From: Candidatus Omnitrophota bacterium
Lineage (GTDB): Bacteria > Omnitrophota > Gorgyraeia > JABMRN01 > RBG-13-46-9
Assembly (NCBI GenBank): GCA_016782425.1
Contig: JADHYN010000002.1
Span: 40,807 to 104,806, forward strand
Length of the DNA: 64,000 nucleotides
Reading direction: 5' to 3'
Position numbers and translations under genes: made by a program. Shown here piece after piece: positions 41,381 to 62,098 of the stretch (position 1 is its first letter; the number at the start of each line of letters is the position of its first letter). The notes beneath the pieces are model-generated. The model saw only the letters and a program-made list of their open reading frames with translations. It had not been told where the DNA came from and made no database searches.

Positions 41381-41393
41381 GTATCGCTACCTC

Positions 41394-43379: not shown

Positions 43380-43413
43380 TAAAAATCCTTCAAAAAAAAT
43401 ATACCTATGACAA

Positions 43414-43617
43414 TCAGCGATTGTTTGAGTTCTCTTTACCCGCAATCCATTTATCAATAGTTGACTTCTTGAATCGCCACGCAGAGCCAACCTTGAAACC
43501 GGGTACTTTGCCTTCTTGAGCGTGCTTGTATATCGTAACCTTCTTCATTCTCAAGTACTTAGCAAGCTCATCGATCGTCATTAGGCTGAATTTGCTTTTG
43601 TCGGTCATTTTAGACAC
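43414..43617 (-). CDS. small excisionase-family (MerR-superfamily) HTH DNA-binding protein
   Basis: MTIDELAKYLRMKKVTIYKHAQEGKVPGFKVGSAWRFKKSTIDKWI; 67 aa. Confidence 0.7.
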   Translation of the reverse strand: MSKMTDKSKFSLMTIDELAKYLRMKKVTIYKHAQEGKVPGFKVGSAWRFKKSTIDKWIAGKENSNNR

Positions 43618-43705
43618 CTCTTCTTATTATTACTAGTTAATACTTATTGTTATTTCGTAATATATTATATTACAAAGTGGTATAAAGAAATATGGGGTGC
43701 TATTA

Positions 43706-43733
43706 AGTATAATGACGAAATCGGATTTGTCAA
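43706..43733 (-). promoter_or_regulatory. sigma70-type promoter TTGACA-N16-TATACT for the HTH/lipid operon
   Basis: Read on the minus strand, about 85 nt upstream of the HTH ATG. Confidence 0.6.
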
Positions 43734-43741
43734 GCGGGGGC

Positions 43742-43771
43742 AAAAAAATAGCCCCATCTGTTAGTGGGGCC
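43742..43771 (-). terminator. intrinsic terminator after the GGDEF gene
   Basis: The minus strand reads GCCCCA-ctaacaga-TGGGGC followed by TATTTTTTTG. Confidence 0.7.
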
Positions 43772-43800
43772 TGTTAAATTTCTATCTAAACTCTCTTACC

Positions 43801-44682: not shown

Positions 44683-44759
44683 TTTCCACCTCTAAGCCTA
44701 ATATTTTATTATAGGTGATATTACCTGCTGCCATTCTATACAATATTAACATATTTAAA

Positions 44760-45803
44760 TCATACCTGCAAATCGTATTCAACGCTCATTAAATCTTCTT
44801 CGGCTTCCTTTGTTTTTCCCATTTTCTCCAATATCTGAGCCCGTTGTCCCCGTAAATACGGCATATACGGATTATCCTTATCTTTACTAATTATACCCGT
44901 AATATACAGATACGCATCTTCATACCTTTTTTGGTCTTTAAGCAATATTGCACGATAATACTCAACCCGGCGAATAACAGATAAACTACGGGAATTCATA
45001 ATAACGTCCTTATATAGCTTTTCACTCTTTTTATAATAGCCGAGAAGATGGTATGTTCGGGCTTTTGTCATCTTGAATTCATAGATATCTTTCATTTCGG
45101 GCTTGATCTTATTAAGATATCTTTCATTAATTATATATACAATGGGGCGAATTAACCTCAATGGTATAAATCTTAAAAAATCAAACCTCACCCCTTCTTT
45201 CGTTATTACATATGTAGGTAAATTGCAGTATACGGCCAAATAAGAAGGGTCAGCCCATCTTTTTTCGTATTCTGCTCTCAGCTTAACCCTCTTATTATCG
45301 GCAATAATGCTTAAATCTTCTTTTATGTCGGACTGAGTGGCAAAATTGCCGTTTTTATTCACAAGATCAAGCTTGTAAGCCGGGTCTACAATTATCCATT
45401 TCTTATCAGGCGCGAGAACCTCTGCTATAGAATGCGGTGAGGCACCTGATGCTGATTGAAGAAATAGAAGCCTTGAGGTTATTCCGATACTCCTGGCCAA
45501 TTGCATAAATACACGTGCCTGCTGGTCACACCATCCAATACCGTAAATCAGCTTCTCGATAGCGCAAGTAGCCAGCCTATTATGATAGCCGTGGATGGAA
45601 AGGACATTTTCATGGACGAAATCCCTGATAGCAACCACCTTATCGTAAAAATTTTCCGATTTATCGGTAAGGCTTCTGGTAATAACGTAAGACATAATCT
45701 TGTTGTACCTTTTTTCAGAAATTGAGGAAAAAAATAGGAAATAAGAAGGGGCGGTTAGTAAAATAATAATTATTATAAGAAAAATAAAACCCTTTTTTTT
45801 CAT
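44760..45803 (-). CDS. membrane-anchored transglutaminase-like protein with C-terminal TPR repeats
   Basis: GWCDQQARVF (Cys), PHSIAEV (His), IIVDP (Asp) core and TPR-like YY..A repeats. Start set at ATG 45803 (MKKKGFIFLIII) with AGGAG 7 nt upstream, rather than 45950. Confidence 0.6.
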   Translation of the reverse strand: MKKKGFIFLIIIIILLTAPSYFLFFSSISEKRYNKIMSYVITRSLTDKSENFYDKVVAIRDFVHENVLSIHGYHNRLATCAIEKLIYGIGWCDQQARVFMQLARSIGITSRLLFLQSASGASPHSIAEVLAPDKKWIIVDPAYKLDLVNKNGNFATQSDIKEDLSIIADNKRVKLRAEYEKRWADPSYLAVYCNLPTYVITKEGVRFDFLRFIPLRLIRPIVYIINERYLNKIKPEMKDIYEFKMTKARTYHLLGYYKKSEKLYKDVIMNSRSLSVIRRVEYYRAILLKDQKRYEDAYLYITGIISKDKDNPYMPYLRGQRAQILEKMGKTKEAEEDLMSVEYDLQV

Positions 45804-45985
45804 AGGATTACTCCTGTATGGGAGATATTGTAGCATTTTTTGGAGTAAATTCCACTTTTTTATTATTACATATATCCTTTCGCCGCACGTTCGGACCGGT
45901 TTCCTGTCTAAATAAGCCAATTCAACAAAGTAATTTAAAAAATCCACCATTTAGGGTATAATCTCAATAACATAAGGATTTTCGC

Positions 45986-48727
45986 ATGGACCGAAATCTA
46001 CCGGAAAAATTTAAAAAGATCTCATCCGAATATAGCAATCAAATTGCAATCAAGTATAAAAAGGATAATAAATGGGCTACTATTACCTACGGTGATTTTA
46101 ATAACACCCTTGAATCGCTATGCAACTTTTTATTAACAAAAAATATTAAAAAGGATGATAAGATCGCTATCCTCCTGAAAAACAGGCCTGAATGGCCGCT
46201 TGTATTTTTCGCATCGCTTTCCATAGGGGCTGCCTGTGTACCTATGAATCCCGAATTAACCCAGAAGGAAATCCAAAATATACTTAATAATTCTGAGTCA
46301 AAAATCGTCTTTACGGACGACGGGTTTTTACGTCTAAAAAAGGAAATCCTGCAAAACTGCCCTTCTGTAAAAGAAGTTATTTCCGTGGATTCAGAATCAG
46401 TTTGGCGACCGACGCGGTCGCCAAATGTTAGTAGCGACCGCCATGCCGATCCGGGTGATACAGCATGCATTCTATACACCTCGGGTACCACTGATGAGCC
46501 AAAAGGCGTTATGCTTTCGCACAAGAATTTGCTTTCGAACTGCGAATCGCTTTATAAATTAAACCTGATTACCCGGAAAGACAGCGTAGTTTCCATTCTT
46601 CCGCTCCACCATACCTATCCGCTAACCATAACGATGCTTCTCCCGCTTTTATACGGCGGCATGATAGTCTATCCCGGTACGCTGCGCGGAGAAGCCGTTT
46701 TACAAGCATTAAAAGAGACCAATCCTACTGTTTTTGTTGCCGTGCCGCAGATTTTTTATACGTTTCATCAAAAGATTGTGGATCTACTGAAGAATATCCC
46801 CTTTCCCCTAAAGCTCTTGCTTAATGCTACAACCAATCTTTTATATCGGATTCGGCGTAAAACACGCATCAATTTATCACGCTACCTATTTTTCAGTCTC
46901 CAAAAAAAATTCGGAAAATCGATGCGTTTATTTGTAAGCGGGGGCGCGAAGCTCGATGAAAACGTCGAACAGGACCTTTTCAAATTCGGATTTACGATAT
47001 TGGAAGGTTACGGCCTTACGGAAACCTCGCCTGTCTTAGCCTTGAATCCTTTAAAAAATCCAAAAATAGGTTCGGTAGGACTTGCGATACCAGAGGTGGA
47101 ATTAAGAATAATAAATAAGGATGAGAATGGCCTGGGTGAGGTCATAGCGCGCGGCCCGAATATTATGGAAGGATACTACAAAAGAAGTGATTTAACCGCC
47201 GATGTGATAAAAGACGGGTGGTTTTATACGGGTGATTTAGGATTTTTTGATAAAGACGGCTATTTGTTTTTGACCGGGAGGTCGAAGGATATAATTGTAT
47301 TGAGTTCGGGTAAGAATATATATCCGGAAGAAATAGAAGAGGCTTACTCTAAAGACGTGCCTGCAGAGGAAATATGCGTATTCGAAGTGCCGTCTAAAAA
47401 GGGAGCCAAAGAAACGGAAGTCCTATGGGCTGTTATTGTTCCCGATCTTAAATTCTTCAAAAAATACGGAGAGGTGAATTTAAAAAATGTTATAAAAGAA
47501 AGAATTGACAATGTATCGAGATCCTTACCTCCCCACAAAAGGCTTATGGGTTTTTCCATAACGCTTGATGAGCTTCCGCGTACGCTTTTGGGTAAAGTTA
47601 AAAGGTTTGCCGTTAAAGAAATTTACATACCAAAGATACTAGAGGAAGAAAAAACCATACCGGAAAAAGAGGACTTATCCCGGGAAGACCGTGAATTAGT
47701 AAATACCTATTTCGGTAAAAAGATAATAGATTATCTTAAAAAAACGGCCAAAGTTGACAAGGCGATTGTCCCGGCTAATTCGCTGGAACTCGACCTCGGG
47801 ATAGATTCATTAGGCAGAATTGACCTTGCCTTCGGCCTTGAAAAGCTGTTTGGAACGGAAATAGAAGATGAAATTATCGGCCGTTCGTTTACGGTAAAGG
47901 ACTTAATTCTGGGCTGCATGGAATCGCTTTTGCCGAAAGATACCAAAACCAAGCGGGAAGGCAAAAAAGGAATAGATTTTGGGCCTGATTACTGGGTAAA
48001 ACTTCTCCGGGTTCCCCCAAAAAAGGAAAGCCTGGATAAAATTGATTTAAACCCGGGTTTTGGCGCCTGGCTGGGTGGCTTTATTTTCACGTTATTGCAT
48101 TGGTTGGTCTATAAATTGTTTTATAGCCTAAAAGTAGAAGGAAAGGAAAATTTTCCCGAAAGCGGACCATATATATTATACGTGAATCATTCGAGTTACT
48201 TCGACGGGTTCCTTGTTGCGGTGTCTTTGCCTAAATTTCCGAGATTAGAGTTATTTTTTGTAGGCTTCAGGCCGTATTTTACCGTACCCATTATCAGGAA
48301 CCTCGTAAAAATAGGAAGAATCATACCGCTTGACTTCTCCTCGCACCTTTTAGAGGCCTTACGAAGCTCGTATTATGTCGTTAAAAAAGGTAAAAGCCTG
48401 TGTTTATTCCCCGAGGGCTTGCGTACGCTTGACGGAGAGATAAAAGAATTTAAGAAAGGGTTCGGTATACTGGTAAAAGAAACGCAGGCAAAGCTTGTGC
48501 CGGTTGTTCTAGAAGGCGCTTACGAAGCATGGCCGAGGACTTCCAAATTTCCCAGACGCCACCCTATAAAGGTAAAGTTCGGCAAGCCACGGGATCCCGG
48601 AGATATGGAAAGAGAAGGCTATAAAATGGGCGCTAAAGACAGCTATGAAGCTATATGCCTTGCAGCAAGGGATGTGCTGGTAACGCTAAAAGAAACCACA
48701 ACTTATGGAGGCCGAAGGCCAACTTAA
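45986..48727 (+). CDS. tridomain protein: AMP-dependent acyl ligase, carrier (PP-binding) domain, and 1-acylglycerol-3-phosphate-type acyltransferase
   Basis: LYTSGTTDEPKGV, GYGLTETS, and YTGDLG adenylation motifs; LGIDSLGRIDL carrier Ser; NHSSYFD (HX4D) and FPEGLRT acyltransferase motifs. Confidence 0.85.
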   Translation: MDRNLPEKFKKISSEYSNQIAIKYKKDNKWATITYGDFNNTLESLCNFLLTKNIKKDDKIAILLKNRPEWPLVFFASLSIGAACVPMNPELTQKEIQNILNNSESKIVFTDDGFLRLKKEILQNCPSVKEVISVDSESVWRPTRSPNVSSDRHADPGDTACILYTSGTTDEPKGVMLSHKNLLSNCESLYKLNLITRKDSVVSILPLHHTYPLTITMLLPLLYGGMIVYPGTLRGEAVLQALKETNPTVFVAVPQIFYTFHQKIVDLLKNIPFPLKLLLNATTNLLYRIRRKTRINLSRYLFFSLQKKFGKSMRLFVSGGAKLDENVEQDLFKFGFTILEGYGLTETSPVLALNPLKNPKIGSVGLAIPEVELRIINKDENGLGEVIARGPNIMEGYYKRSDLTADVIKDGWFYTGDLGFFDKDGYLFLTGRSKDIIVLSSGKNIYPEEIEEAYSKDVPAEEICVFEVPSKKGAKETEVLWAVIVPDLKFFKKYGEVNLKNVIKERIDNVSRSLPPHKRLMGFSITLDELPRTLLGKVKRFAVKEIYIPKILEEEKTIPEKEDLSREDRELVNTYFGKKIIDYLKKTAKVDKAIVPANSLELDLGIDSLGRIDLAFGLEKLFGTEIEDEIIGRSFTVKDLILGCMESLLPKDTKTKREGKKGIDFGPDYWVKLLRVPPKKESLDKIDLNPGFGAWLGGFIFTLLHWLVYKLFYSLKVEGKENFPESGPYILYVNHSSYFDGFLVAVSLPKFPRLELFFVGFRPYFTVPIIRNLVKIGRIIPLDFSSHLLEALRSSYYVVKKGKSLCLFPEGLRTLDGEIKEFKKGFGILVKETQAKLVPVVLEGAYEAWPRTSKFPRRHPIKVKFGKPRDPGDMEREGYKMGAKDSYEAICLAARDVLVTLKETTTYGGRRPT
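46402..46424. repeat. REP palindrome copy D, in-frame inside the ligase CDS
   Basis: TTGGCGACCGACGCGGTCGCCAA, translated as VWRPTRSPN just upstream of the LYTSGTT motif. Confidence 0.9.
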
Positions 48728-49761: not shown

Positions 49762-50343
49762 TTATTTATTAATCACGATAGTTCCGAGGGAAGTACCTTC
49801 TTTTTCTTTCTTTATCTCTTCTATTCTTCTATTTAATTCCTCTATTTTTGCCTCGGCTCCGGCTTTTTCATTATTCAGCGCCTCTATCTCTGTCTTGATA
49901 TCATCGAAGGCCTTATTTGCTAACTCAAGCGGTTTTAAGAGGCTTGTCTTTTCCTTTTGATGTTGCGTGACGCTGGCGCTCAATCTGTTTATCCGGTCGT
50001 CTTTTTGCTTTATTGAATCGGCAAACTTTTGGCTTTTATTGGTCTCGGCGGTTAATTGTCCGGTAAGGCTTTTTACGTTTGCCCTGGAAATTTCAAGCTG
50101 TCGTTCGGCGTTCTTTTTTGATTCCTCGATTTCCTCCAAGGTCTCGGTAAGCGCCATCTTATCCTGCATGAGCTCTTCGAAGCTTGCCTGGAGCGCTTCC
50201 TTTTCTTCATTTATATTTTTCTTCGTAATAAATAAAAAAGTCGCAACTAAAATGGAAATCACGCATAGCGCGATTAATGCCGCCAGAGTAGTCTTATCGC
50301 GATTATTAATGATGTAATTTTTTATTTTATTTATCAGGCTCAT
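49762..50343 (-). CDS. membrane-anchored coiled-coil protein
   Basis: One N-terminal TM helix, then heptad-rich Glu/Lys/Leu sequence. 17-nt overlap with the secretin 3' end. Confidence 0.45.
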   Translation of the reverse strand: MSLINKIKNYIINNRDKTTLAALIALCVISILVATFLFITKKNINEEKEALQASFEELMQDKMALTETLEEIEESKKNAERQLEISRANVKSLTGQLTAETNKSQKFADSIKQKDDRINRLSASVTQHQKEKTSLLKPLELANKAFDDIKTEIEALNNEKAGAEAKIEELNRRIEEIKKEKEGTSLGTIVINK

Positions 50344-52288
50344 AGATTATATATAAACTGAAATCTTTCTTATGCTCCCTGATCGCCTGTGGAAATACCG
50401 GAAATGGAGCTGCTTTCTCTACGGCAGCTATTGCTATATCGTTAAAGAAAAAGTTTGTTGATTCCTTTACCCTGGGTTTGGAGGCGAGATTCCCTCCTGA
50501 GTATAAAGAAAATTTTATTCTGACTTTGTCACCCCTTAATATATGCGAATCTTTTTTGGGTACATAAATGTTATCCATTATTTTATTCTTTATGGTATAG
50601 AAATACTCCGCCGCACTTGAGATTTCTGCTTCCGGGGCTCTCTTTTCCCTTGCTTCTTTGATTTTTTTAGCCTTTTTCATCGGAATATCTTCTCTCAGAT
50701 AACCCGTTGATACTTCTATCGGTTTTCTTCTATCAAAAGTTGGTTTCTCCTGCATTGTAAATTTTCCTTTGCCATCAGGATACGAAGGAGGCGTCTTTAG
50801 ATAATCTGTCTCGCCCGAAATAATGTGCGGGGTAAGAAATATTACAAGCTCCTTCTTTGTCACCGAATCCTCCGTCTTAGAGAAAATCTGACCGACAAGG
50901 GGAATATCCCCCAAGAAAGGTACTTTGTTGGTTGTGCTCTTACGCTCATCTTTTATCAAACCGGCAATAATTATCGTTATCCCGTCTTTTACCATGACGC
51001 TTGTCTCAGCGTGGGTTGTGTCGACAATAGGAACTGTTGTAGACGGATCGCCGTATGTATAACTGCTTGTTGAGGAACTTACCTCCGGTCTTATTTTCAT
51101 GGAAACAAAACCATCGCGATTTATGGTTGGAGTAACGTATAGTTTTACCCCTATATCCAGGAAGTTAAGTTCCGTCGCTACTGTTGTAGTAGACGTTCCC
51201 TGCGTTACCGTATTCGTGGCATACGGCTCGCTTGAACCAACAAGTATCTTGGCTTCCTCATTATTTAAAACCGTGATCCTTGGACTTGATAAAATATTGG
51301 CATCGCCGACTTTTTTTAAGGCCTGGACCATTGCGGCATAATCGCCCTCGCCAAAGGCCCCTATCATAATTTCACCGCCCGGAACAAGCCCGCCGGCGGA
51401 AGCTAATTTGAATTGACTTTTTATCCCTATATCTTTTGATAAGACTTTTTGGAATTCATTGCTCACCACTTCCCAATCAATGCCCAATTTGTATTCATCG
51501 CTTAAGTTTATTTCGAGTATTTTCGCCTCGATCAGAACCTGTTGCACTTTGTCATCCAGAGCGCTTATTATTTCTTCTATTTCATCCATTCTTTCTTCTA
51601 AATCTGTGATAATGATTTTGTTTGTTCTCTCATCGATCTGCACCATTCCCACGCCCTTGGTGAGATTCTCCCCGATTTTATCCTTTATATCCGCTGTATT
51701 GGCATAATTCAGCTCAAATATCTTTGTAGTCGTGGGTTTATCTATTCTTTTTACCAGTTCGACCGCTTGCAAAACAGCCTGTGGCGCATCTATAATAACA
51801 ATGGTATTTGACGCTTCATCTACTATAACCTTCCCTATTTTTGTTTTTATCTGATTTAACGCCTTGTTTACCTCGGCGGGTTTTGCGTATTTGAGCTGTA
51901 TTATTTTTGCTTCTTTTTTATCGGCGTATTTCCTCCCGTACAGCGCTTCGTAATCTCTCTCGGTCATGACATATACGATATCGCCCTTTTTGTCGCTTGC
52001 GAGGTTATTTGCCAATAGAATTATCTCGAAGGCCTCCTTAACGTCCACATCTTTCAGAAACATGGTAACCCTGCCGCGGACATTGCTCCCCACGACAAGA
52101 TTCATTTTGCCTTTCGAGGCCAGTGTTTTTAAGACCTCAACGATATCCATGCCTTTTAAATCCAATGATATGGTGTCTTCGCTATCAATGGCACTCAGGC
52201 TCTCACCCGGGTGAAACTGTGCAAACGCGAAGGTGGAAGCAAAAAATACTGCCGACGCAAAGGCTATATATACAAAATATTTTTTCAT
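50327..52288 (-). CDS. secretin (GspD/PilQ family) with C-terminal TonB-C-like extension
   Basis: Signal peptide MKKYFVYIAFASAVFFASTFAFA and secretin core ...PFLGDIPLVGQIFS...ELVIFLTPHII, plus a 160-aa tail. Start ATG 52288 has GGAG 8 nt upstream; the alternative is 52306 (ATGA overlap). Confidence 0.85.
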   Translation of the reverse strand: MKKYFVYIAFASAVFFASTFAFAQFHPGESLSAIDSEDTISLDLKGMDIVEVLKTLASKGKMNLVVGSNVRGRVTMFLKDVDVKEAFEIILLANNLASDKKGDIVYVMTERDYEALYGRKYADKKEAKIIQLKYAKPAEVNKALNQIKTKIGKVIVDEASNTIVIIDAPQAVLQAVELVKRIDKPTTTKIFELNYANTADIKDKIGENLTKGVGMVQIDERTNKIIITDLEERMDEIEEIISALDDKVQQVLIEAKILEINLSDEYKLGIDWEVVSNEFQKVLSKDIGIKSQFKLASAGGLVPGGEIMIGAFGEGDYAAMVQALKKVGDANILSSPRITVLNNEEAKILVGSSEPYATNTVTQGTSTTTVATELNFLDIGVKLYVTPTINRDGFVSMKIRPEVSSSTSSYTYGDPSTTVPIVDTTHAETSVMVKDGITIIIAGLIKDERKSTTNKVPFLGDIPLVGQIFSKTEDSVTKKELVIFLTPHIISGETDYLKTPPSYPDGKGKFTMQEKPTFDRRKPIEVSTGYLREDIPMKKAKKIKEAREKRAPEAEISSAAEYFYTIKNKIMDNIYVPKKDSHILRGDKVRIKFSLYSGGNLASKPRVKESTNFFFNDIAIAAVEKAAPFPVFPQAIREHKKDFSLYIIYEPDK

Positions 52289-52302
52289 GTCTTTACTCCG
52301 TT

Positions 52303-52929
52303 TCATAAAACAAGTATTATTTGTCTTCCCTTATAGCTCAACACTACTTTCCCTCCGCCGATCTCGAGAATATCGACACCACTGAAAGACTGGCCTTTAT
52401 ACAGGTAATGGGTTTTTTGCGCTTCTTTATCTTCTATTATGGCCTGCGGTTCGTCACCGGCTATAATTCCCACCAGGTTGAATCTCTTGGTTATATCTAT
52501 CTCGGGAACCTGAGATTCTTCTTCTTTAATAAACGGGGCGCTGAAGAGATTCTTTCCTTTTATCTGCCTCGAATAGGTTGAATAATCCTTTACGTGTGGC
52601 GATACTGGTCTTTCCGGCGGTGCAAGATCTGTGCCAACGCGGCCGGTCTCTCCGGGAGGAACAATGGAACCGATGTCCTTATACGGACTGTACAAAAAAC
52701 TGTCGAGAAAATATATGGAAGCTATTATCAAAACAGCTACCAGGATCCTGTTTATGGGCTTCAGGAATACAGGTTTGAATATTTTATTCTTGAGGAAAAT
52801 CTTTTTGACGGCTTCGGTAAACAATGATTTTTGCGCCACGGCCGGTGTCGCCTCGCCCGTGTCGCTTCTCTTCTTATATTTTCCTTTTATAAGGTGGAGT
52901 AGCCGGTCTTCGGGCGAATCTGGTCTCAT
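52303..52929 (-). CDS. GspC/PilP/GspB-like secretin-associated inner-membrane protein
   Basis: One TM helix and the C-terminal pattern NLVGIIAGDEPQAIIED...GQSFSGVDILEIGGGKVVLSY. Sits between the ExeA-like ATPase and the secretin. Confidence 0.5.
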   Translation of the reverse strand: MRPDSPEDRLLHLIKGKYKKRSDTGEATPAVAQKSLFTEAVKKIFLKNKIFKPVFLKPINRILVAVLIIASIYFLDSFLYSPYKDIGSIVPPGETGRVGTDLAPPERPVSPHVKDYSTYSRQIKGKNLFSAPFIKEEESQVPEIDITKRFNLVGIIAGDEPQAIIEDKEAQKTHYLYKGQSFSGVDILEIGGGKVVLSYKGRQIILVL

Positions 52930-53745
52930 CTATATATCCTCTTTTTTTATGATTTCGAAAATCATCTGTTCGTCAACAATGTCTTTTTGTTTTATTATTA
53001 ACTCTTCAAGCGAATTATGGCACAAAACAGCGATTTTTCTCGGATAGCCCTGGCTGTATTCAAATATACGTTTTACGCTTTCCGGGGTAAATAAGTGCCT
53101 GTCCCTGGAAAGCCCCGCCTGTTTTAATCTGAAATTTATCATCTCTTTCGTTTCGTTCATATCGAGCGGATTTATTATGTACTTTAATGCAATCCTGTCA
53201 TAGAAATTTTTTACCCGCTTTATTTTGGGTAAGAGTTCCATCTGGCTCATTATGACAAGCTGCAGAAGTTTATATTCGTTCGTTTCATAGTTGAGAAGCG
53301 TTCTTAATACTTCTAAAAAATTAGAATGGAGCTTCTGCCCTTCATCGATCAAGAGAACTATTGTCTTATGTTCATCGATACCTTTTTTAAACAGGTATTT
53401 TTCTATCTCTTCCTTGTAATCGTGCGTCGTCCTTGTATCGGGCGTTATCCCGAATATCTTGACAAGTGTTTCTAAAAGCTGAAATTCGGAATTGTAGTCC
53501 GGATCAAGTATCATGTGGAAGACAAAATCGTTGTCGTTCGAAAATTCCTGCAGAAGGGCCCGTGAAAGTGTTGTCTTGCCGGTACCGACATCCCCAAGGA
53601 TTAAGCTTAAACCCCTCCTAAGGCGGATTCCTATTTCAAGCCTTTTCAGGACGGAATTATGGGCGGAAGAGCGGTATAAAAATGCCGGATCCGGGCTTGT
53701 GGAAAACGGTTCTTTTTTTAAATTCAGAACTTCGTAATAACCCAT
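52930..53745 (-). CDS. ExeA/GspA/MshM-like AAA ATPase
   Basis: Walker A GDVGTGKTTL and Walker B VLLIDEGQ; 271 aa. Confidence 0.8.
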   Translation of the reverse strand: MGYYEVLNLKKEPFSTSPDPAFLYRSSAHNSVLKRLEIGIRLRRGLSLILGDVGTGKTTLSRALLQEFSNDNDFVFHMILDPDYNSEFQLLETLVKIFGITPDTRTTHDYKEEIEKYLFKKGIDEHKTIVLLIDEGQKLHSNFLEVLRTLLNYETNEYKLLQLVIMSQMELLPKIKRVKNFYDRIALKYIINPLDMNETKEMINFRLKQAGLSRDRHLFTPESVKRIFEYSQGYPRKIAVLCHNSLEELIIKQKDIVDEQMIFEIIKKEDI

Positions 53746-53760: not shown

Positions 53761-53982
53761 TTAGAGCAAGTCTTTGATCTTGCGTAACGATTTTTTCTCT
53801 TTTCGATAATTTCGTATTCTGTTTAGCCTTTGAATCGTAGAGTCGTCAAAATACCTAAAATTTGTCTCCGGGCTTCTTCCGGTCTCTTTTATCAATCCGA
53901 GCTTCAAGTAATACTTTACTGTATAAATAGATAAGCCAGAAAACCGCGCGATATCCTTTATTAAATATAGTTTAGAAGTCAT
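53761..53982 (-). CDS. small MerR-family HTH protein
   Basis: YLIKDIARFSGLSIYTVKYYLKLGLI; 73 aa. Confidence 0.7.
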   Translation of the reverse strand: MTSKLYLIKDIARFSGLSIYTVKYYLKLGLIKETGRSPETNFRYFDDSTIQRLNRIRNYRKEKKSLRKIKDLL

Positions 53983-54085: not shown

Positions 54086-54619
54086 TTAGCCGAGGATGAT
54101 CTTGCCTATAAGGAATATGCCTTTAAGCCTATGTGAAGAGCTCAATCGTGAGGTTATTGTGAATTGTCGCACCCTCAGGTGCTCGGTGGATGCCTCTATT
54201 TCGTATAAAAACCGCGATAGTTCATCAAGGCTACCGCCTGTTGTAATCTCGAAGAGTATTTCTTTATAATTGCCTAATTTTCTTGAAGCCCTCGGCCGTA
54301 TATTAACTATATGGCAGGCGCTTTTCTTCGAAACATTCTCTATTTCCCTCAAGGCCTTTGCCTGTTCTTCTTCCTCGTTTTTACTTATCTCTATAACACC
54401 GTGGTATTTAGCGTATTCTTCCTCCAGCGATTGGTACATGTTGAGAAGTTTTGTATTTTTGTTTAATTGAACGATCTTTGATACTAATTGGGCATTGAGC
54501 GTTTTCCAGCGTCTGAGGACAGGCTCTATAATCAAGCTATACAGAATAGCTACCGTTGCCAGGGTTATGCAAATTGCTAATAGCGTTCGTTCGTTTTTCC
54601 CCAGATTTCTTATAAACAT
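54086..54619 (-). CDS. PilO/GspM-like bitopic assembly protein
   Basis: N-terminal TM helix, then coiled coil, then a small C-terminal domain. Lies directly after the PilM-PilN gene. Confidence 0.5.
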   Translation of the reverse strand: MFIRNLGKNERTLLAICITLATVAILYSLIIEPVLRRWKTLNAQLVSKIVQLNKNTKLLNMYQSLEEEYAKYHGVIEISKNEEEEQAKALREIENVSKKSACHIVNIRPRASRKLGNYKEILFEITTGGSLDELSRFLYEIEASTEHLRVRQFTITSRLSSSHRLKGIFLIGKIILG

Positions 54620-54623
54620 GGTT

Positions 54624-56054
54624 TTATACCCTGGATAACTGGCATATTATCTCAAACTCGGTTACCTGACTGCCTGATATGGATCTTTTCGCGGTATATT
54701 TTACCTTCACGTTTTCGAAATACTGCGATTTTTCCAATATTGTTATAAATTTAATGACTGCATCGAGAGACGGCGCGGTTCCCCTTAACGCTAAAGATCT
54801 ATCACTTTCATAGTCTATCAAATTGAAAGTTACGCCACCGGGTGTAACCTTGTAAATCTCGGCAACCACGTCGATTGCGAGCGGCTTTTTCTGCACCACG
54901 TTCTTTATTATCCTGATATCTTCCCTCATTCTTTTTGCCTTTTTAACCTTCGGCTCCATGGTCTTGATTTTTGAGTTCAAAAGGCCGAGATAACGAGATT
55001 TATCGAATATCTTTTTCGCTATGATTGTAAAAAAGATCAATGCGACGCAGGATAATAGAATTAATGTTTTTGAAAGATTCTTTTTTAAAACGGCAAGCTC
55101 GTTATCTTCTATCATGTTTACCGGAAGGAGATTGATCTCCATTTCCTTATCCTTCAAACAAAGACCGACGAGTCCGGCAAAAGACGTATCGCCTAAACTG
55201 GCTTCTACGTTTTTATCGAGTGTTATATTTTTAGACTGGTCTATCACCTCAAGCGGTATGCCCAATTCTTCTCTTAAAACAGGCTCTATCGCTTTGACTA
55301 TGTTTCTCGCGCCTGTAATAATTACCTTCTCGACGGTTGATTTCTTTTCTTTCTGGTATGTTTCGATTGATTGTTTTATTTCATCGAGGGTGTCTTTATT
55401 AAAAGGCATTTCTACTTTGCTATATGTGAAAGCCCTGGTAAAGGCGAGTTTTCCTTTTTCAATGATATCTACATCTATATATGTTGAATCCACGTTTATG
55501 AGAGCAATGTTATTTTTCGACTCTCCTTTTGTCTTCTCCTTCATCGCCAAATACCAACCGAATAAGGACTCGGAACTAAGCACCATCTTTTTCACCATTA
55601 GATTGGCTCCCTTTAAAGTCTTGATAAAGAGGTTTATGGTGCTCGCCTGGGCAATGGCCATTAAAACATCGGAATAACCGTCCTTCAATTTCTCGATTAT
55701 CCTGTAGCCGACGATGATGTCCTCGTCCCTGTATGGCATCTGCCTTGCCGACTCCATTTCAACCATGCTTTTTATTTCATCGTCGTTCGTTGACGGAAGG
55801 CGCGCGCTCCTTGCCATTATGAGGTGTCTTGGAACGTTCAGGTATATTCTGCCGATGGGGAATTTGTGTGTCTTGAAAAGATTTGCTATTTCTTTTAGGA
55901 TGACTTCACTTTCTCTTGAAAAGAATTCTTTCTTCACAAGGCGGAATGCGGGCTCTTTCTTGGAGAAAATGATCCCAGCTACCTTTATGAAATCATTGTA
56001 TAGTTCAACCGAGACCGGCGCACCTTTAAGATTGAGCTTGTTCTTTTTTGCCAT
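54624..56054 (-). CDS. PilM-PilN fusion (actin-like ATPase fold fused to a PilN-type TM protein; GspL analogue)
   Basis: PilM-like N-terminal ~320 aa, then the INLLPV hallmark, a TM helix (TLILLSCVALIFFTII) and a PilN-like periplasmic part. Confidence 0.8.
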   Translation of the reverse strand: MAKKNKLNLKGAPVSVELYNDFIKVAGIIFSKKEPAFRLVKKEFFSRESEVILKEIANLFKTHKFPIGRIYLNVPRHLIMARSARLPSTNDDEIKSMVEMESARQMPYRDEDIIVGYRIIEKLKDGYSDVLMAIAQASTINLFIKTLKGANLMVKKMVLSSESLFGWYLAMKEKTKGESKNNIALINVDSTYIDVDIIEKGKLAFTRAFTYSKVEMPFNKDTLDEIKQSIETYQKEKKSTVEKVIITGARNIVKAIEPVLREELGIPLEVIDQSKNITLDKNVEASLGDTSFAGLVGLCLKDKEMEINLLPVNMIEDNELAVLKKNLSKTLILLSCVALIFFTIIAKKIFDKSRYLGLLNSKIKTMEPKVKKAKRMREDIRIIKNVVQKKPLAIDVVAEIYKVTPGGVTFNLIDYESDRSLALRGTAPSLDAVIKFITILEKSQYFENVKVKYTAKRSISGSQVTEFEIICQLSRV

Positions 56055-56114
56055 GTAACAACCTTATTTTCTTTTATATATTATACATGGAAGAAGTGCA
56101 TTCTTCAATCTTAA

Positions 56115-57143
56115 CTATTCCTCATGATAATATTTTATTTCTTCGTTTTCTCTTCCTACGACGCAGGTTATGATTTTCCCTATTTTGTGCACTTCCCCGT
56201 GTGATGTAATGCGGAAATTATCCGCCTTAAAAATAAAGTAATCCGCTACTTGAGTCAGTCTCGCGGATTCGCCGGGTTCTACATTTGGTATGGTCCCTAA
56301 ATCTTTAATGGGTCTATCGTCCTTGGTGGTTTCTTTGCCGTCAAAGCCTCTTCTATAGTGTATGATTTTATCGGCGAGATTCGGATAGGCATCCCCTTCA
56401 TCGTTTAATATCGCATTGAGCACTTCCCGGGAGGCAGTGTTTATGTTTATTTTACCCTCGGTGTAAACCGTTACATTGTCTTTGATCTCGTTAAAGATTT
56501 CCCTGGTAATACCTTTTACGAGGAGAAGTTCTTCTACAAGTTCAAAATCCCCGTTTTTGCATCCGTACGGATGTTCCAGGGATTCGCTATAATATGTGTT
56601 CTCGGCACCGCCCGGCGTAGAGGCTTCCGAATCACTATCCTGCCAATCTACCATGGCACTAATTATCTCGTCGGTAAGATCTGGGGATAAGCGTTTTAGT
56701 ATATTTTTATAATCTTCCTTTTTTTGATAGCAGCTTAATTTTATATTGATCTTTCTCTCCTCGTCCGCCATGCCGTAATAGGTGTATTCTTTTTCGTCGA
56801 TATCGCTTTTTTGTCTATAGAATACGCAAAATCTGCCATTTCCTAATTTATTAAAATTCGGACTGAATATGCTCTCGGGGGTTTCGTTTATTTTTAACGA
56901 TATTCCGCATTCGTATAAAGTATCGTAATCTTCTTTTCTGTCGCTTGATAGAAATTCTCGTGCTTTTACGATTCCGGCCTTTGCCGCGTAACGGGCCTCC
57001 AGCTCATCCATATTATACTTGGTGAGGCGCACTTCGATCGAAGACCTGAAACCTATGCCCATCGCAAGAAGAGAAAGTATCGCCATAATCCAGAGTGTAG
57101 TTATCAATATGGAGCTCTTATTATCATTCATTGCAAAGCTCAC
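56115..57143 (-). CDS. gspK: GspK-like minor pseudopilin
   Basis: SSILITTLWIMAILSLLAMG N-terminus lacking Glu5; ININTASREVLNAIL helix-hairpin-helix-like segment; 342 aa. Confidence 0.7.
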   Translation of the reverse strand: MSFAMNDNKSSILITTLWIMAILSLLAMGIGFRSSIEVRLTKYNMDELEARYAAKAGIVKAREFLSSDRKEDYDTLYECGISLKINETPESIFSPNFNKLGNGRFCVFYRQKSDIDEKEYTYYGMADEERKINIKLSCYQKKEDYKNILKRLSPDLTDEIISAMVDWQDSDSEASTPGGAENTYYSESLEHPYGCKNGDFELVEELLLVKGITREIFNEIKDNVTVYTEGKININTASREVLNAILNDEGDAYPNLADKIIHYRRGFDGKETTKDDRPIKDLGTIPNVEPGESARLTQVADYFIFKADNFRITSHGEVHKIGKIITCVVGRENEEIKYYHEE

Positions 57144-57772
57144 GTCTCTTCTTCCTCCTTACCGAGTTTGCCCGTGGGGATAAGGATAATGTTTTCAAAC
57201 GTCTTTTCCGTTTCTCGTAGTTCATCTTTTAATGTAAGCTTGATTTTTACTCCTCGCGGTATCTTATCGTCAAATTCCCATTCATCCCGCCATTCATATT
57301 CGCCTTCGGCTACGGGAGACTCATAACAATACTCGAAAGCCAGGCTTTTCAAACCCTCAAGAAGCGTCTCCTCCTCACCTCCACTTTCACTAAAACCATC
57401 TTTTAAGGTTGCCTGAATTCTCGTAAGTTTCCCATTAGCGTTGTCAAATCGGTACGCAACCTTTGCGAGTTCCCTGCTTATCACGTTGTTGTCGTAAATA
57501 TTTATGACACTCGGAAACGCTACGCTGTCGTTTAGCCATTCATATTCGATGCTGAAATCAGCCTCTCTTGCAAAATTGGCTGCGGCATTTTGCATGTCTT
57601 TGGATACAGCGTCAAAAAATATCCGCAGTCTTTGGTTATCCTCTATTATGGAATTTCCTCTTTGCCATATCCTGATCCCGGCATTAAAGGTATAATAAAT
57701 GCTTGCTGCAATGATGGAAAATATGGTCAATGCCACTAATAGCTCGATGAATGTAAACGCTTTTTTTCTCAT
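57140..57772 (-). CDS. GspJ-like minor pseudopilin
   Basis: Prepilin N-terminus MRKKAFTFIELLVALTIFSII; size and order fit GspJ. Confidence 0.65.
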   Translation of the reverse strand: MRKKAFTFIELLVALTIFSIIAASIYYTFNAGIRIWQRGNSIIEDNQRLRIFFDAVSKDMQNAAANFAREADFSIEYEWLNDSVAFPSVINIYDNNVISRELAKVAYRFDNANGKLTRIQATLKDGFSESGGEEETLLEGLKSLAFEYCYESPVAEGEYEWRDEWEFDDKIPRGVKIKLTLKDELRETEKTFENIILIPTGKLGKEEEET

Positions 57773-58137
57773 TCGGTTTTATTTTTAAGGTAGGTTGTGA
57801 TAAAGTATTTTGTAATTTCGGGTTGTTCTTTCTGGAAGGCCTCCAGCCTGACAAGGTTAAGATCCGAATCTTCGAGGCGCTCTGATGCCAGCTTCCAGGA
57901 ATATCCCTCGTCTTCTTCGAAATCCCCGCTTTCTCGGCCCTCTTCTATCTTGCCTTTCTCCTCAAATCCCCACATCTTTTGTTCCAATAAAAGCGATACT
58001 TTAAAGACTTCGGTTGAGCGCTCTATGGATTCTTTTGCCGACGAGAACGCGCGCATTACAAAAAGAACGCCGGCGGTGATTATAACGATGCTTATCACAA
58101 CTTCAAACAGCAAGAATCCTTTATTCTTTATCTTCAT
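57769..58137 (-). CDS. GspI-like minor pseudopilin
   Basis: MKIKNKGFLLFEVVISIVII prepilin-type N-terminus; 122 aa. Confidence 0.6.
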   Translation of the reverse strand: MKIKNKGFLLFEVVISIVIITAGVLFVMRAFSSAKESIERSTEVFKVSLLLEQKMWGFEEKGKIEEGRESGDFEEDEGYSWKLASERLEDSDLNLVRLEAFQKEQPEITKYFITTYLKNKTE

Positions 58138-58696
58138 CTTCTATTATATCTTTTATTTCTATCTCGCTTCCGAATCCCTTTACGTGCAATATGCGGCCTT
58201 CCCCGTTTTTATCGACTATTTTTATTTCGGCTTCATTCGACCGGCCGTCCGGATAAAAGACTATTTTTTTAACCTTGTCGCCAAACCGAAGCCCTTCCGG
58301 AAGCGAAAAGGTTCTTCCGTATCTTCCTCCGATTCTCTTGTAAACAGGCTTCTCGCCGAAGGAATCGAGTTTCATAATCCAATATGTCCCTTTTTTATGA
58401 TCGAGATTTAGTTTGTAGTTCGCCCTTTCGATAATGGCTATCTCCCGCATGTAATTTATCATTCTAGCCATGTTAAAGGCGGTATTTTTAAGCTGAATAT
58501 CCGAAAAAGTTCTTCTGAATAAAGGCGTCGAAAGGCTTATCAGGATGGATATGAGAAGGGCTACGAGTATTAGTTCTATTAATGTGAACCCGGCCCTTCC
58601 TGCCCCAAATAACTTCTTCTCAGTAAGGAAGGGCGGGGTGAATCCCCTGCCGGAATTATTATTGTGTTCCTTCTTCGTCCCAATTGGTGATGTCAT
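58121..58696 (-). CDS. GspH-like minor pseudopilin with long leader
   Basis: GRAGFTLIELILVALLISILISL prepilin motif preceded by a 36-aa leader. No in-frame alternative start lies closer. Confidence 0.65.
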   Translation of the reverse strand: MTSPIGTKKEHNNNSGRGFTPPFLTEKKLFGAGRAGFTLIELILVALLISILISLSTPLFRRTFSDIQLKNTAFNMARMINYMREIAIIERANYKLNLDHKKGTYWIMKLDSFGEKPVYKRIGGRYGRTFSLPEGLRFGDKVKKIVFYPDGRSNEAEIKIVDKNGEGRILHVKGFGSEIEIKDIIEDEDKE

Positions 58697-59141
58697 CGTC
58701 TCCGCCCTCTACGCCGTTTCTGCCGTAGGAGTATAAATCGTAGTCCACATTACGGGTACCGGGATATTTATAGACATAGGGGTTTCCCCAGGGGTCTACG
58801 GGTCTTTTTTTCAAATAAGGCCCCCTCCAGTTCGGCGCGCTTGTCGGCTTTGTTAAAAGGGCGTTCAGGCCTTCTTCTGTCTTGGGATAAGCACCGTTAT
58901 CGAGTTCATAGAGATCAAGGGCTGAGCCGATATTCAACTCTATATCTGCCTTGGCGGCTGCTTCTCTTGCCTGTTCGGTTCTCCCGGCGAGTCTGGGCAT
59001 GACCATAGCCACCAGAATGCTTATTATGATGACTACAAGCATGAGTTCTACAAGCGTAAACCCCGTTAGAGATTTCTTAACTACAGGTCTTGTCCCGATC
59101 TCTAACCGGGTAAATCCTTTTTTGTTCCGATGTGATTTCAT
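58659..59141 (-). CDS. gspG: type II secretion major pseudopilin GspG
   Basis: TGFTLVELMLVVIIISILVAMVMP..., AKADIELNIGSALDLYELDNGAYP, and WGNPYVYKYPG. Start set at ATG 59141 (GGAGG 5 nt upstream) rather than 59171. Confidence 0.9.
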   Translation of the reverse strand: MKSHRNKKGFTRLEIGTRPVVKKSLTGFTLVELMLVVIIISILVAMVMPRLAGRTEQAREAAAKADIELNIGSALDLYELDNGAYPKTEEGLNALLTKPTSAPNWRGPYLKKRPVDPWGNPYVYKYPGTRNVDYDLYSYGRNGVEGGDDDITNWDEEGTQ

Positions 59142-59163
59142 ATATACCTCCGGGTATTTAATA

Positions 59164-60381
59164 TTATCCAACCAAAAAATTTATCTCAAAAATGGGGAGA
59201 AGCATTGATATTACGATAAAACCCACAACTAAACCAAGCACTAAAATCAAAACCGGTTCTAAAAGTGACATCATGACTTTGACGGCGGCGTCTGTTTCCC
59301 TTTCATAACTTTCGGCTATTTTAAAAAGGGATTTCTCAACCCTGCCGCTTTCTTCTCCGACCGCTATCATGTTCACTACAAACGGCGGAATAATAGAACT
59401 TTTGGAAAAACCGAATGCAAGATTCGCCCCGCCTCGTACATGCGTTGATACTTTATTTACTTCTTTCTTTACGACAGCGTTATTTACCGTATCCAGGACA
59501 ACATCAAGAGACTGGAGTATCGGAACGCCGTTATTTAAAAGAGTAGCGAGTGTCCTTGTAAATCTTGCTATCTCCACTTTCTTTATGAGATTACCGAAAA
59601 GCGGCATATTCATTTTAAAATTATCTATGGCAAGCCTGCCGTCTCTCGTTTTATACAACCTCATAAAAATGAAACTTGCCAGTATAATAAAAAATAAAAT
59701 CAGCCACCAGTATCTTTTTATGGTATTGCTTATGCCGATCAGGACCAATGTCGGAATCGGCAGATTCTGGCCCAGATCGCCGAACATCGTTATCATCTTC
59801 GGTATTACAAACGTAAGTAAGACGACTATCGTAATCCCGCCCACGGCCGACATGAGAATAGGATAGGCAAGGGCCGAGCGGATCTTCGTCTGAATCTCAA
59901 GCTGCTTCTCGTTAAAGTCGGAGAGGCGCTTTAATATGTTCTCGAGCGCTCCCCCTGTCTCGCCGGATCTTACCATGCTGACGAATAAATTTGAAAATAT
60001 TTTCGGGTGCCTGGCAAGGGCTGTTGAAAGCGAATTTCCGTCGATACAAAAATCTCGCACATCCGCTACGACATCCTTAAGGCGCCTATTTTCCGTCTGG
60101 TCGTGTAGTATATCAAGCGCCTTTACGATGGTAAGCCCGCCTTCCAGCAAGTCCGAAAGCTGCCTTGTAAAGTTTGTTATGTCTTTAAGACTGGCTCTTT
60201 CCCGGAAAAATCCGGATTTTTTCTCGAGGGCTTTCCTTGATTTTATGTACTCGTCGATGGAGAGAAGATAATACCCCATGTTGGATATCTTCTGAATGGC
60301 AGAGCCCTTGTTATCGGCTACTATGGTACCCTCTACGACGTCGGAAGGACTTTTTTTCGCCTTGTAAATAAATTTAGGCAT
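59164..60381 (-). CDS. gspF: type II secretion/T4P platform protein (GspF/PilC family)
   Basis: 405 aa with two T2SSF repeats and three TM segments. Confidence 0.9.
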   Translation of the reverse strand: MPKFIYKAKKSPSDVVEGTIVADNKGSAIQKISNMGYYLLSIDEYIKSRKALEKKSGFFRERASLKDITNFTRQLSDLLEGGLTIVKALDILHDQTENRRLKDVVADVRDFCIDGNSLSTALARHPKIFSNLFVSMVRSGETGGALENILKRLSDFNEKQLEIQTKIRSALAYPILMSAVGGITIVVLLTFVIPKMITMFGDLGQNLPIPTLVLIGISNTIKRYWWLILFFIILASFIFMRLYKTRDGRLAIDNFKMNMPLFGNLIKKVEIARFTRTLATLLNNGVPILQSLDVVLDTVNNAVVKKEVNKVSTHVRGGANLAFGFSKSSIIPPFVVNMIAVGEESGRVEKSLFKIAESYERETDAAVKVMMSLLEPVLILVLGLVVGFIVISMLLPIFEINFLVG

Positions 60382-60385
60382 TATC

Positions 60386-62098
60386 TTATTCTGCGTGCTC
60401 TTCCTGCTGGGTTACCCTTATAACTTCAGAAGGGGTGGTAATCCCCATTTTTACCTTTTGCCATCCGTCCTGACGTAACGTATGCATGCCGAGGGAGACG
60501 GCTTTTCTCTTGATCTCGTCGGATGCGGCCCTGTCGAGTATCACCTTTCTTATTTCTTCGGTTACGACCAATACCTCGTAGATGGCGGTTCTGCCTTTAT
60601 ACCCTGTATATTTACACGACTCGCATCCCTTGCCTTCAAGCATCTTTACTTTTAAGGCTTCTTTTTTTGTTACCTCCAATTCCCTCAGGATCTCTTTATC
60701 GGGTTTCGATTCTCTTTTGCATTCAGGGCATATAACCCTTACGAGTCTTTGCGCGAGAAAAGCGTTTACAGATGAGGCCACAAGAAACGGTTCCACCCCC
60801 ATGTCGACAAGCCTTGTTATGCCGCCGGCCGCGTCATTCGTGTGGAGAGTGGAAAATACAAGGTGCCCTGTGAGGGCAACTCTTATTGTTATCTCCGCTG
60901 TCTCATAATCCCTTACCTCTCCTACCATCATGATATCCGGGTCGTGCCTCAACATCGTTCTTAATCCGTTCGAAAATGTAAGGCCTATTTTGGGATAGAC
61001 CTGTATCTGCGTTATACCTTTCATCTGGTATTCGATAGGGTCTTCTATGGTGAGAATTTTCTTTTCTTTGTCGTTTATCTTGCTTAATGCCGCGTAAAGA
61101 GTGGTGGTTTTCCCGCTTCCGGTAGGGCCGGTAACAAATATTATGCCGTGAGGGGCTTTTATTAATTTTTCGAATATCTCCAGGTCTCTTTTGAGAAGCC
61201 CCAGGTTTCCAAGGCCGTATAGCACGTTTGTGGAAAGGAGCCTTATAACAACGGCTTCACCAAACGGCGTGGGAAGCAGGGATATCCTGAGATCGACTTC
61301 GTCCTTGGCTATTTTAATCTTTATCCTTCCGTCCTGCGGAAGCCGCCTTTCGGCAATGTCAAGATTTGCCATTACCTTGATACGCGAAATAATGGCGGAC
61401 TGGAAGCTTTTTATGTTCGGCGGGATTTTCGTGTCGTATAAAATTCCGTCAACCCTGTATCTTATTTTAAGTTCGTCCCCATAAGGCTCTATATGGATAT
61501 CCGTCGCCCTGTCTTTATATGCCTCCAGGAGAATCTGGTTTACGAATTTTATTATAGAGGCGTCTTCGGCTGACCTTGCGATGTCTTCTGTAACCTGCGA
61601 CTGGACGCTTAAGGGTTTTCTATCGGTAACCTCGGGCGTTATCTTCTCTATGGTTTCGGCGCCCACGCCGTAATATTTCTTTATGGCTTCGACGATATCG
61701 CTTTCGCTTGCGAGAACCGTCTTTATTTCTTTCTTTAATAAAAGTTTTAAATCGTCCAGGGTGTGTATGTCGAGCGGATTTGACATGGCGACTGTTATAA
61801 CATTTTTTTCAAAGCGGATCGGGATGAGTTTATAGTGCGTGGCGAATTTGGCGGGGATCTCTTCTATTGTCGAATGAGGTATCTTGAGGTCTTTTAGCTT
61901 TATGTATTTCTTGTCGAACTGCTCTGCCAAAACCTTGTATAATAATTCTTCTGTTACAAATCCTAATTTAATTAATATAGTACCCAATAAGCCGCCTGAG
62001 CTTTCCTGTTCCACCAGGGCACGCTCCAGCTGCTCTATGGTTATCAGGCCCTTTTGTACCAGCAATTGGCCTATAAGTTCGGATCTTCGGAGTGGCAT
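60386..62098 (-). CDS. gspE: type II secretion ATPase GspE with MshEN-type N domain
   Basis: Walker A GPTGSGKTTT, Asp/His boxes, tetracysteine CPECK...CESCK, and an N-terminal double 24-residue repeat. Confidence 0.95.
   Translation of the reverse strand: MPLRRSELIGQLLVQKGLITIEQLERALVEQESSGGLLGTILIKLGFVTEELLYKVLAEQFDKKYIKLKDLKIPHSTIEEIPAKFATHYKLIPIRFEKNVITVAMSNPLDIHTLDDLKLLLKKEIKTVLASESDIVEAIKKYYGVGAETIEKITPEVTDRKPLSVQSQVTEDIARSAEDASIIKFVNQILLEAYKDRATDIHIEPYGDELKIRYRVDGILYDTKIPPNIKSFQSAIISRIKVMANLDIAERRLPQDGRIKIKIAKDEVDLRISLLPTPFGEAVVIRLLSTNVLYGLGNLGLLKRDLEIFEKLIKAPHGIIFVTGPTGSGKTTTLYAALSKINDKEKKILTIEDPIEYQMKGITQIQVYPKIGLTFSNGLRTMLRHDPDIMMVGEVRDYETAEITIRVALTGHLVFSTLHTNDAAGGITRLVDMGVEPFLVASSVNAFLAQRLVRVICPECKRESKPDKEILRELEVTKKEALKVKMLEGKGCESCKYTGYKGRTAIYEVLVVTEEIRKVILDRAASDEIKRKAVSLGMHTLRQDGWQKVKMGITTPSEVIRVTQQEEHAE

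Follow-up and report, generated by a model that had tools for sequence, protein, structure and literature searches.

A TonB/TolA-type C-terminal domain fused to a GspD-like secretin in Omnitrophota

The stretch of DNA analysed here (64,000 nucleotides of contig JADHYN010000002.1 from a Candidatus Omnitrophota bacterium; hereafter the window) carries on its minus strand an open reading frame (ORF) for a GspD-like secretin of 659 amino acids (aa) with a C-terminal tail (50327..52306). Its Pfam matches comprise Secretin (PF00263, E 4.5e-51, aa 329-496), two copies of Secretin_N (PF03958) and a weak N0/STN, and it scores 279 bits against NCBIfam TIGR02517, under that model's equivalog cut-off of 351. 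PulD, GspD and ExeD are the best structural matches that Foldseek returns for a full-length model. Having a secretin core, an N0 domain and Secretin_N domains, and lying in a gene set like that of type II secretion systems (T2SS), the protein is a GspD-like type II secretin. It is present in the public record at 100% identity (P0001, 653 aa), where NCBI starts it at the second ATG, six codons downstream, and names it 'TonB C-terminal domain-containing protein [Candidatus Omnitrophica bacterium]'; the fusion is thus already flagged by automatic annotation, though mislabelled.

The full-length model orders the protein as signal peptide, N0, two further N domains, core and tail. The N-terminus (aa 1-29, ending ..AFAQ; 52220..52306, minus strand like all features of the gene) reads as a predicted Sec signal peptide of the cleavable type, with a modelled helix at aa 5-26. 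The periplasmic N domains, placed by Pfam and by the secondary structure of the full-length model, lie at 51557..52174, with N0/STN at aa 45-115 and the two Secretin_N at aa 132-250. The core, delimited by Pfam and beta-rich in the model, spans aa 256-499 (50810..51541) and ends ..ELVIFLTPHIISGE; the stretch ..LTPHIISGE closes it at aa 499, and the 160 aa that follow form the tail, which maps exactly to 50330-50809 on the minus strand plus the stop codon. An earlier note on this DNA had described a 160-residue tail after the core at 50327-50809, and its coordinates, the sequences it quoted and its end of the core are all borne out. The full-length monomer model gives no sign of the tail packing onto the core. 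A frameshift artefact joining two genes was ruled out as the source of the tail, because the single secretin-tail ORF recurs in more than 100 independent assemblies.

Three parts of the tail become apparent when it is aligned with 120 homologues. The first (aa 500-540; 50687..50809) is Pro-rich, conserved and predicted to be disordered; its consensus, DYLxxPxxPPxGExxFTxPEKPxFERR..MxPGxFK, reads DYLExPxxPPIGExxFTxPEKPxFERR..MxPGxFK in fuller form. Its majority-residue fraction is 0.59-0.67 among the 120 homologues, its predicted local distance difference test (pLDDT) score is about 40-55 in the full-length monomer model, and it is conserved only within the near clade of tail-bearing secretins. 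The second part, a Lys/Glu-rich linker recognised from the alignment and the models (aa 541-564; 50615..50686), includes a short helix at aa 543-553 and is the least conserved block, with a majority fraction of 0.22 and a variable length. Over aa 500-565 (66 aa), Lys, Glu and Pro make up 38% of residues as against 22% in the whole secretin, which agrees with the Lys/Glu/Pro-rich linker described previously. The third part (aa 565-659; 50330..50614) is the TonB/TolA-type C-terminal domain found by Pfam, AlphaFold2, Foldseek and profile search. It consists of a helix (565-578), two strands (594-602 and 612-616), a second helix (619-632) and a last strand (646-654); Y568, F599 and G605 are invariant in it, and it has the motif AAPFPxFP.

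The secretin tail ends in a genuine TonB/TolA-type C-terminal domain (CTD), an identity on which hidden Markov models (HMMs) and structure prediction converge. Scanned alone, the tail matches Pfam TonB_2 (PF13103) with 27.2 bits (E 4e-6; gathering cut-off 22), and in NCBIfam it matches tolA_full (E 1e-5) and tonB_Cterm (E 4e-4), each under its own cut-off. A single-sequence phmmer search of the tail against PDB sequences gave noise only, whereas a profile made from 39 tails of the family found the H. pylori TonB-CTD (6sly) at E 1.6e-6, then other TonB and HasB chains. AlphaFold2, run as a single chain on a 71-sequence alignment, models aa 565-654 as alpha-beta-beta-alpha-beta, with block-mean pLDDT of 92-98 in the domain proper and of 77 and 81 at its ends. 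The 20 top Foldseek matches of the tail in the PDB are exclusively TonB-CTD, HasB, FusB and TolAIII (target TM-score up to 0.73), the best being 6sly (E 3.4e-5, target TM-score 0.69) and 2x9a, a TolA (target TM-score 0.71). The domain thus belongs to the superfamily both by HMM, with a TonB_2 score above the Pfam threshold, and by its TonB-CTD/TolAIII fold with a three-stranded sheet, and the TonB/TolA identity proposed in the earlier note stands; the HMM search, the structure prediction and the survey of secretins that the note had suggested are all in line with it. That note had recognised a TonB_C pattern; the assignment to a TonB/TolA-type domain holds, but to judge from its residues the domain lies closer to TonB_2/TolA than to classical TonB_C.

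The fusion is conserved across secretin homologues. The best 120 homologue clusters (47-68% identity; full-length members 627-703 aa) are from Omnitrophota wherever the source names an organism, and many are called 'TonB family protein'. TonB_2 matches 67 of 70 scanned homologues, which are 45-68% identical to the secretin of the window, and 68 of the 71 members of the alignment; TonB_C matches 39 of those 71. A survey with one genome per species yielded 80 related secretin loci, nearly all in Omnitrophota metagenome-assembled genomes (MAGs). A tail of about 110-180 aa matching the tail HMM is present in 46 of the 80, and in ~30 the secretin stops 7-75 aa past the core. When the cores are arranged in a neighbour-joining tree, the tail-bearing secretins fall into one large group, which also encloses a few tail-less sequences, two of them cut by contig ends. 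Within ±6 kb of tail-less sister secretins, the family HMM found no free-standing TonB-like domain. An account of these loci in which the domain had moved was accordingly rejected, the genes found there being instead for proteins with a transmembrane segment, a coiled coil and TPR, or for amidases.

The domain also extends to a second class of secretins. An exhaustive HMMER search with the domain profile returned 368 cluster representatives at E <= 1e-10, and the best 150 of these 368 include secretins with one to three tandem domains, signal-peptide proteins of two to six tandem domains and small single-domain proteins. Two double-domain secretins lie in Tad-pilus loci with RcpC, a CpaC-type secretin and a CpaE-CpaF fusion (L083 307-2238 and L084 10001-12394). 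Such Tad-type secretins combine T2SS-T3SS_pil_N and Secretin with one or two TonB_C, usually two (E 1e-33 to 1e-37). For one of them, all 120 of the best relatives have Secretin plus TonB_C, those with a named source being nearly all Omnitrophota, with one labelled Phycisphaerae. From the survey of T2SS-type loci together with these Tad-type secretins, we conclude that a TonB-type domain at the C-terminus characterises two classes of secretin throughout the phylum Omnitrophota, where the fusion is the rule and under selection, not an accident. The earlier statement that TonB_C normally sits on inner-membrane transducers is true of the studied cases; it does not extend to Omnitrophota, in which fusion to a secretin is the norm, in two classes and with one to three copies.

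Some further observations were made on the distribution of the domain and of the operon. One GspD-like secretin of 851 aa (P0121) carries three tandem copies of the tail-domain subfamily, and signal-peptide proteins with tandem arrays of three to six copies of this subfamily come from Omnitrophota and one Melainabacteria MAG (the set of P0121, P0122, P0387 and P0139). The typical Omnitrophota operon also occurs on contigs labelled 'uncultured Planctomycetia', 'Cyanobacteriota', 'Methanosarcinales archaeon' and 'Auribacterota' (L014, L018, L022-L024 and others; L057; L068; L072), which are probably labelling or binning errors. Some Omnitrophota associate with methanogens, and the Methanosarcinales label may reflect an association of this kind.

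Immediately downstream of the secretin lies a gene for a protein of 193 aa (49762..50343, minus strand; ORF), with a transmembrane helix at aa ~19-40, a coiled coil of ~140 aa and a conserved C-terminus. Its ATG precedes the secretin stop, giving a 17-nt overlap, and an orthologue, defined by position, is found directly 3' of the tail-bearing secretin in 19 of 19 distinct near-clade loci with downstream sequence. Pfam gives coiled-coil-type matches only. The protein ends ..KEKEGTSLGTIVINK, and the alignment of 19 orthologues singles out its C-terminal SLGTIVI (aa 185-191; 49771..49791, minus strand) as a candidate TonB-box/TolA-box-like strand: S-L-G-T-x-V is the most conserved stretch of proteins that are about 30% identical elsewhere, and the C-terminal consensus is ..EKEG(V/T)SLGT[IV]V[IV].., with no TPR. 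A search of a set of 5.8 billion proteins found no homologue of the coiled-coil protein at E <= 1e-3, so the conservation of the motif is based on the 19 near-clade loci and the window. As a string of residues, SLGT[IV]V[IV] may be likened to a TonB or TolA box; that of P. aeruginosa TolA is ADPLVISSGNDRA, in which L-V-I are critical, and both TolA and TonB take hydrophobic short strands by parallel beta augmentation (PMC7066135). The existence of P0192, a single protein with an anchor, a 620-aa coiled coil and the same domain subfamily, shows that a fused anchor-stalk-head architecture is in use; P0192 does not lie in a secretion locus and supports the architecture only.

A short basic peptide, ..[KR]KPxK.., closes many of the Omnitrophota sister secretins that have no tail, and the gene after them encodes a transmembrane segment, a coiled coil and a C-terminal TPR (L055, L059, L066, L067, L068, L074 and L081). 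RcpA binds the TPR groove of the pilotin TadD through its four C-terminal residues (PMC10499894). The sister loci are reminiscent of this docking, but with a TPR anchored in the inner membrane, and by analogy they can be seen as the architecture of the window locus in which 'peptide' and 'binding domain' have exchanged places. Other tail-less sisters are followed by a lipoprotein-like, AmiC-like N-acetylmuramoyl-L-alanine amidase (Amidase_3 plus an N domain of the Cu_amine_oxidN1 type; L056 7441-8532 and L063 7546-8619).

On the other side of the secretin lies the remainder of a densely packed minus-strand operon, whose gene order is kept in the related loci L001/L002 and L029, one relative being 56% identical. 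A GspC/GspB-like protein of 208 aa (52303..52929; Pfam), its stop overlapping the secretin start by 4 nt, has weak matches to T2SSC (E 1.5e-4) and to T2SSB and 38% identity to the L001 orthologue, which has PF11356. Beside it lies a gene for an ExeA/GspA/MshM-like AAA_22 ATPase of 271 aa (52930..53745; Pfam AAA_22 E 2.5e-17) that has neither a transmembrane nor a peptidoglycan-binding part; its best NCBIfam match, the PEP-CTERM-associated ATPase model TIGR03015 (E 1.9e-51), is under cut-off. Between the ATPase gene and a PilO-like gene lies a small MerR-type HTH gene of 73 aa (53761..53982; ORF and position), an assignment taken from the gene at the same position in L001/L002 (PF13411 MerR_1) and not from a scan of the window copy. 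The rest of the T2SS-like operon (54086..62098; Pfam) encodes GspE (MshEN+T2SSE), GspF, GspG, three minor pseudopilins, GspK, a PilM-PilN fusion and PilO/GspM, so that the assembly platform consists of the PilM-PilN fusion and the PilO-like protein instead of the classical GspL/M. PilM and PilN are joined in one 476-aa protein (54624-56054, minus strand), a GspL-like arrangement made from pilus-type domains and conserved in L001/L002. No lipoprotein/pilotin-like or TPR gene was seen in the operon by Pfam scans, in which an S-domain model was not searched specifically, and none of the ~50 ORFs scanned in the 64-kb window is an ExbB, ExbD, TolQ, TolR or MotAB.

Directly upstream of gspE lies a gene for a CBM30/CBM_11 protein (62222-63457, minus strand), and in relatives the operon is followed by a 1486-aa beta-helix protein and a GH5 mannosidase; the CBM30/CBM_11, beta-helix and GH5 proteins are possible substrates of the T2SS-like system. 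A lipid-related cluster at 37082-48727 contains two ketosynthases, a KR, a FabA-like dehydratase, an NAD_binding_4 reductase and a GMC oxidoreductase, and close to it are a 913-aa AMP-binding and acyltransferase fusion, a transglutaminase-like protein and a response regulator-GGDEF protein. Besides the secretion operon and the lipid cluster, the window holds sensor kinases and housekeeping genes, among them the trp and his operons, alaS, recA and htrA.

What might such a domain do at the end of a secretin? It is not a TonB/TolA-type energy transducer, because nothing anchors it in the inner membrane, as would be needed to transmit proton-motive force in the manner of TonB and TolA, and ExbBD/TolQR are not encoded in the window. 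With a probability of roughly 40%, we infer that the tail is a tethered periplasmic docking module whose best candidate ligand is the near clade's downstream SLGT[IV]V[IV] protein. Every secretin subunit would then bear a TonB/TolA-type domain at the end of a flexible tether some 65 residues long. The domain would sit in the periplasm close beneath the outer membrane, where other secretins have a pilotin-binding S-domain or C-terminal peptide. It would keep the common activity of the fold, the capture of a short strand from a partner by parallel beta-strand augmentation. As a secretin consists of roughly a dozen subunits, the tail domains would form a ring through which the channel docks to a partner in the periplasm. 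For the near clade this partner would be the co-translated downstream protein, with its inner-membrane anchor, its ~140-residue coiled coil (~20 nm if it forms one continuous helix) and its almost invariant C-terminal SLGT[IV]V[IV]. Anchor and stalk would reside in one protein and the head on the secretin, as in a 'split TolA', and the pair would strut the secretin to the inner membrane.

In its most specific form, which we regard as rather doubtful, the arrangement would be a split and inverted TolA: a head in every secretin subunit, into which a separate protein made of anchor, coiled coil and TonB-box-like strand plugs, bracing and possibly gating the T2SS channel. If this were true, it would be a new mode of bracing and the mirror image of the peptide-into-TPR docking of the sister secretins and of RcpA-TadD.

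Several observations weigh against docking of the tail to the downstream protein. The likeness to a TonB box comes to 5-7 residues. In a more distant clade with tails (39-47% identity), none of the ~28 loci has such a coiled-coil gene within 6 kb downstream, and none lies downstream of the Tad-type secretins with TonB_C tails; because these two sets have the domain without the partner, the domain's general role must be independent of the coiled-coil protein and hence broader. The near clade alone has both the partner gene and the conserved Pro-rich linker, and the partner could bind the Pro-rich segment rather than the globular domain. The partner's transmembrane helix, as read from its sequence, has no His/Ser motif of the TonB/TolA type. 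BLASTP found no similarity between the coiled-coil protein and the sister loci's proteins with transmembrane segment, coiled coil and TPR, so the equivalence of the two is positional only.

The main rival to peptide docking is that the tail is a generic anchor or assembly module, its domains binding peptidoglycan or an abundant outer-membrane component, or associating with each other around the channel, and thereby stabilising and positioning the multimer with no dedicated peptide partner; we consider this possible, though not probable. The tail would then play a part like that of S-domains, pilotins or AMIN domains, and the coiled-coil protein would be independent of it or act through the Pro-rich linker. 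Such a role fits the tails of the distant clade and of the Tad secretins, which no coiled-coil gene accompanies, and it fits the one to three domain copies per secretin and the secreted arrays of two to six copies, which are typical of binding modules based on avidity. No pilotin-like lipoprotein was seen in the operon, and the AmiC-like amidase beside some tail-less sisters points to a need for cell-wall handling. TonB CTDs are said to dimerise and to associate with peptidoglycan; a literature search on TonB-CTD, peptidoglycan and LysM found nothing. A generic anchor leaves unexplained, however, the strict coupling of the two genes and the invariant C-terminal strand of the partner in the near clade; moreover, no motif supports a peptidoglycan-binding role, and the monomer model is uninformative on self-association.

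Two other accounts fare worse. The ring of domains could recognise cargo or the pseudopilus: exoproteins or pseudopilins would be caught by a strand motif where they enter the channel from the periplasm, in line with the binding of TonB/TolA domains to strands of transporters, TolB, colicins and phage g3p (Foldseek matches 2x9a, 4g7x and 3qdr) and with the CBM protein that flanks the operon and the large beta-helix and GH5 proteins of relatives. We think this very unlikely, given that the C-terminus of solved secretins, as known from S-domains, lies outside the barrel near the membrane and away from the periplasmic entrance (PMC10499894), and that Tad secretins, which pass a pilus and not folded cargo, bear the same type of tail. 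Energy coupling in reverse, with the tail as the receptor end at the outer membrane and an inner-membrane motor of the ExbBD/TolQR type, driven by proton-motive force, pulling on it through the coiled-coil protein to gate or open the secretin, would draw on a fold that transmits force in the Ton and Tol systems (PMC7066135) and on a candidate partner with a membrane anchor and sufficient length to cross the periplasm. We give it still less credence: scans of the 64-kb window found no ExbB, ExbD, TolQ, TolR or MotAB, none was seen in related loci with genes listed, the partner's transmembrane helix has no conserved His/Ser motif, and other clades have the tail without the partner.

To our knowledge, the means by which secretins are targeted, stabilised and linked to the envelope are known for a few proteobacterial systems only, namely pilotins, S-domains, AMIN domains and GspAB. 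Omnitrophota, which are tiny, mostly uncultured and often host-dependent, rely heavily on type II and Tad machinery, and they appear to solve this problem with a different and well-understood protein module; the protein described here is a secretin with an unusual but well-characterised accessory domain. Should the tail dock a defined strand, it would offer a simple interaction that can be tested in vitro for an uncultured phylum, as well as a new case of the TonB/TolA fold outside energy transduction.

The naming of these proteins matters as well, since 'TonB family protein' hides secretion systems and inflates TonB counts. According to a 2026 preprint, the Omnitrophota genomes that it collected have no canonical TonB-dependent receptors, which also speaks against the tail being an energy transducer; the preprint includes in its TonB-domain content two genes labelled 'TonB C-terminal domain' that lie next to giant-protein loci (10.64898/2026.06.07.730766). 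Because public naming calls tailed secretins TonB proteins, these two genes may be tailed secretins. Full-text literature searches turned up neither a description nor a discussion of a secretin-TonB_C fusion; a TonB C-terminal domain on an outer-membrane protein does have a precedent in the literature.

Compared with known systems, the tail domain is closest in kind to the CTDs of TonB and TolA (TonB_C PF03544, TonB_2 PF13103, TolA PF06519), with which it has the fold and a detectable sequence kinship in common. Like them it is C-terminal and preceded by a Pro/Lys/Glu-rich linker, and the strand-augmentation mode of binding is presumed, by analogy, to be the same. Its carrier differs from theirs, being an outer-membrane secretin with a Sec signal peptide where TonB and TolA have an anchor in the inner membrane that couples to ExbBD/TolQR; each of the dozen or so subunits of the channel is expected to bear one copy, and no TonB-dependent transporter or TolB partner is evident. 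The GspA-GspB (ExeA-ExeB) systems likewise have an AAA-type ATPase gene and a small GspB/C-like gene ahead of the secretin. ExeB was originally called TonB-like, on the strength of 39% overall similarity, a common proline-rich region and similar conservation profiles with no structural comparison, and it binds the periplasmic N domains of the secretin (PMC4098917). In the window, unlike in GspA-GspB, the ATPase is without transmembrane or peptidoglycan-binding part and the TonB-like fold is on the secretin itself.

The pilotin-binding S-domains and peptides (PulD-PulS, GspD-AspS, RcpA-TadD) occupy the same place as the tail, straight after the core, and by analogy their general role, the docking of an accessory factor for placement or stability of the channel, is likely shared. 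S-domains are short helical or unstructured peptides bound by a lipoprotein, whereas in the window locus the folded binding domain belongs to the secretin and the peptide to its presumed partner; unlike in the pilotin systems, no pilotin gene was seen in the operon. The Tad-type secretins (CpaC/RcpA-like) of Omnitrophota differ from the window secretin in belonging to another secretin class, in having classical and usually doubled TonB_C and in having no coiled-coil gene downstream, but they come from the same phylum and carry the same type of fusion at the same end of the secretin.

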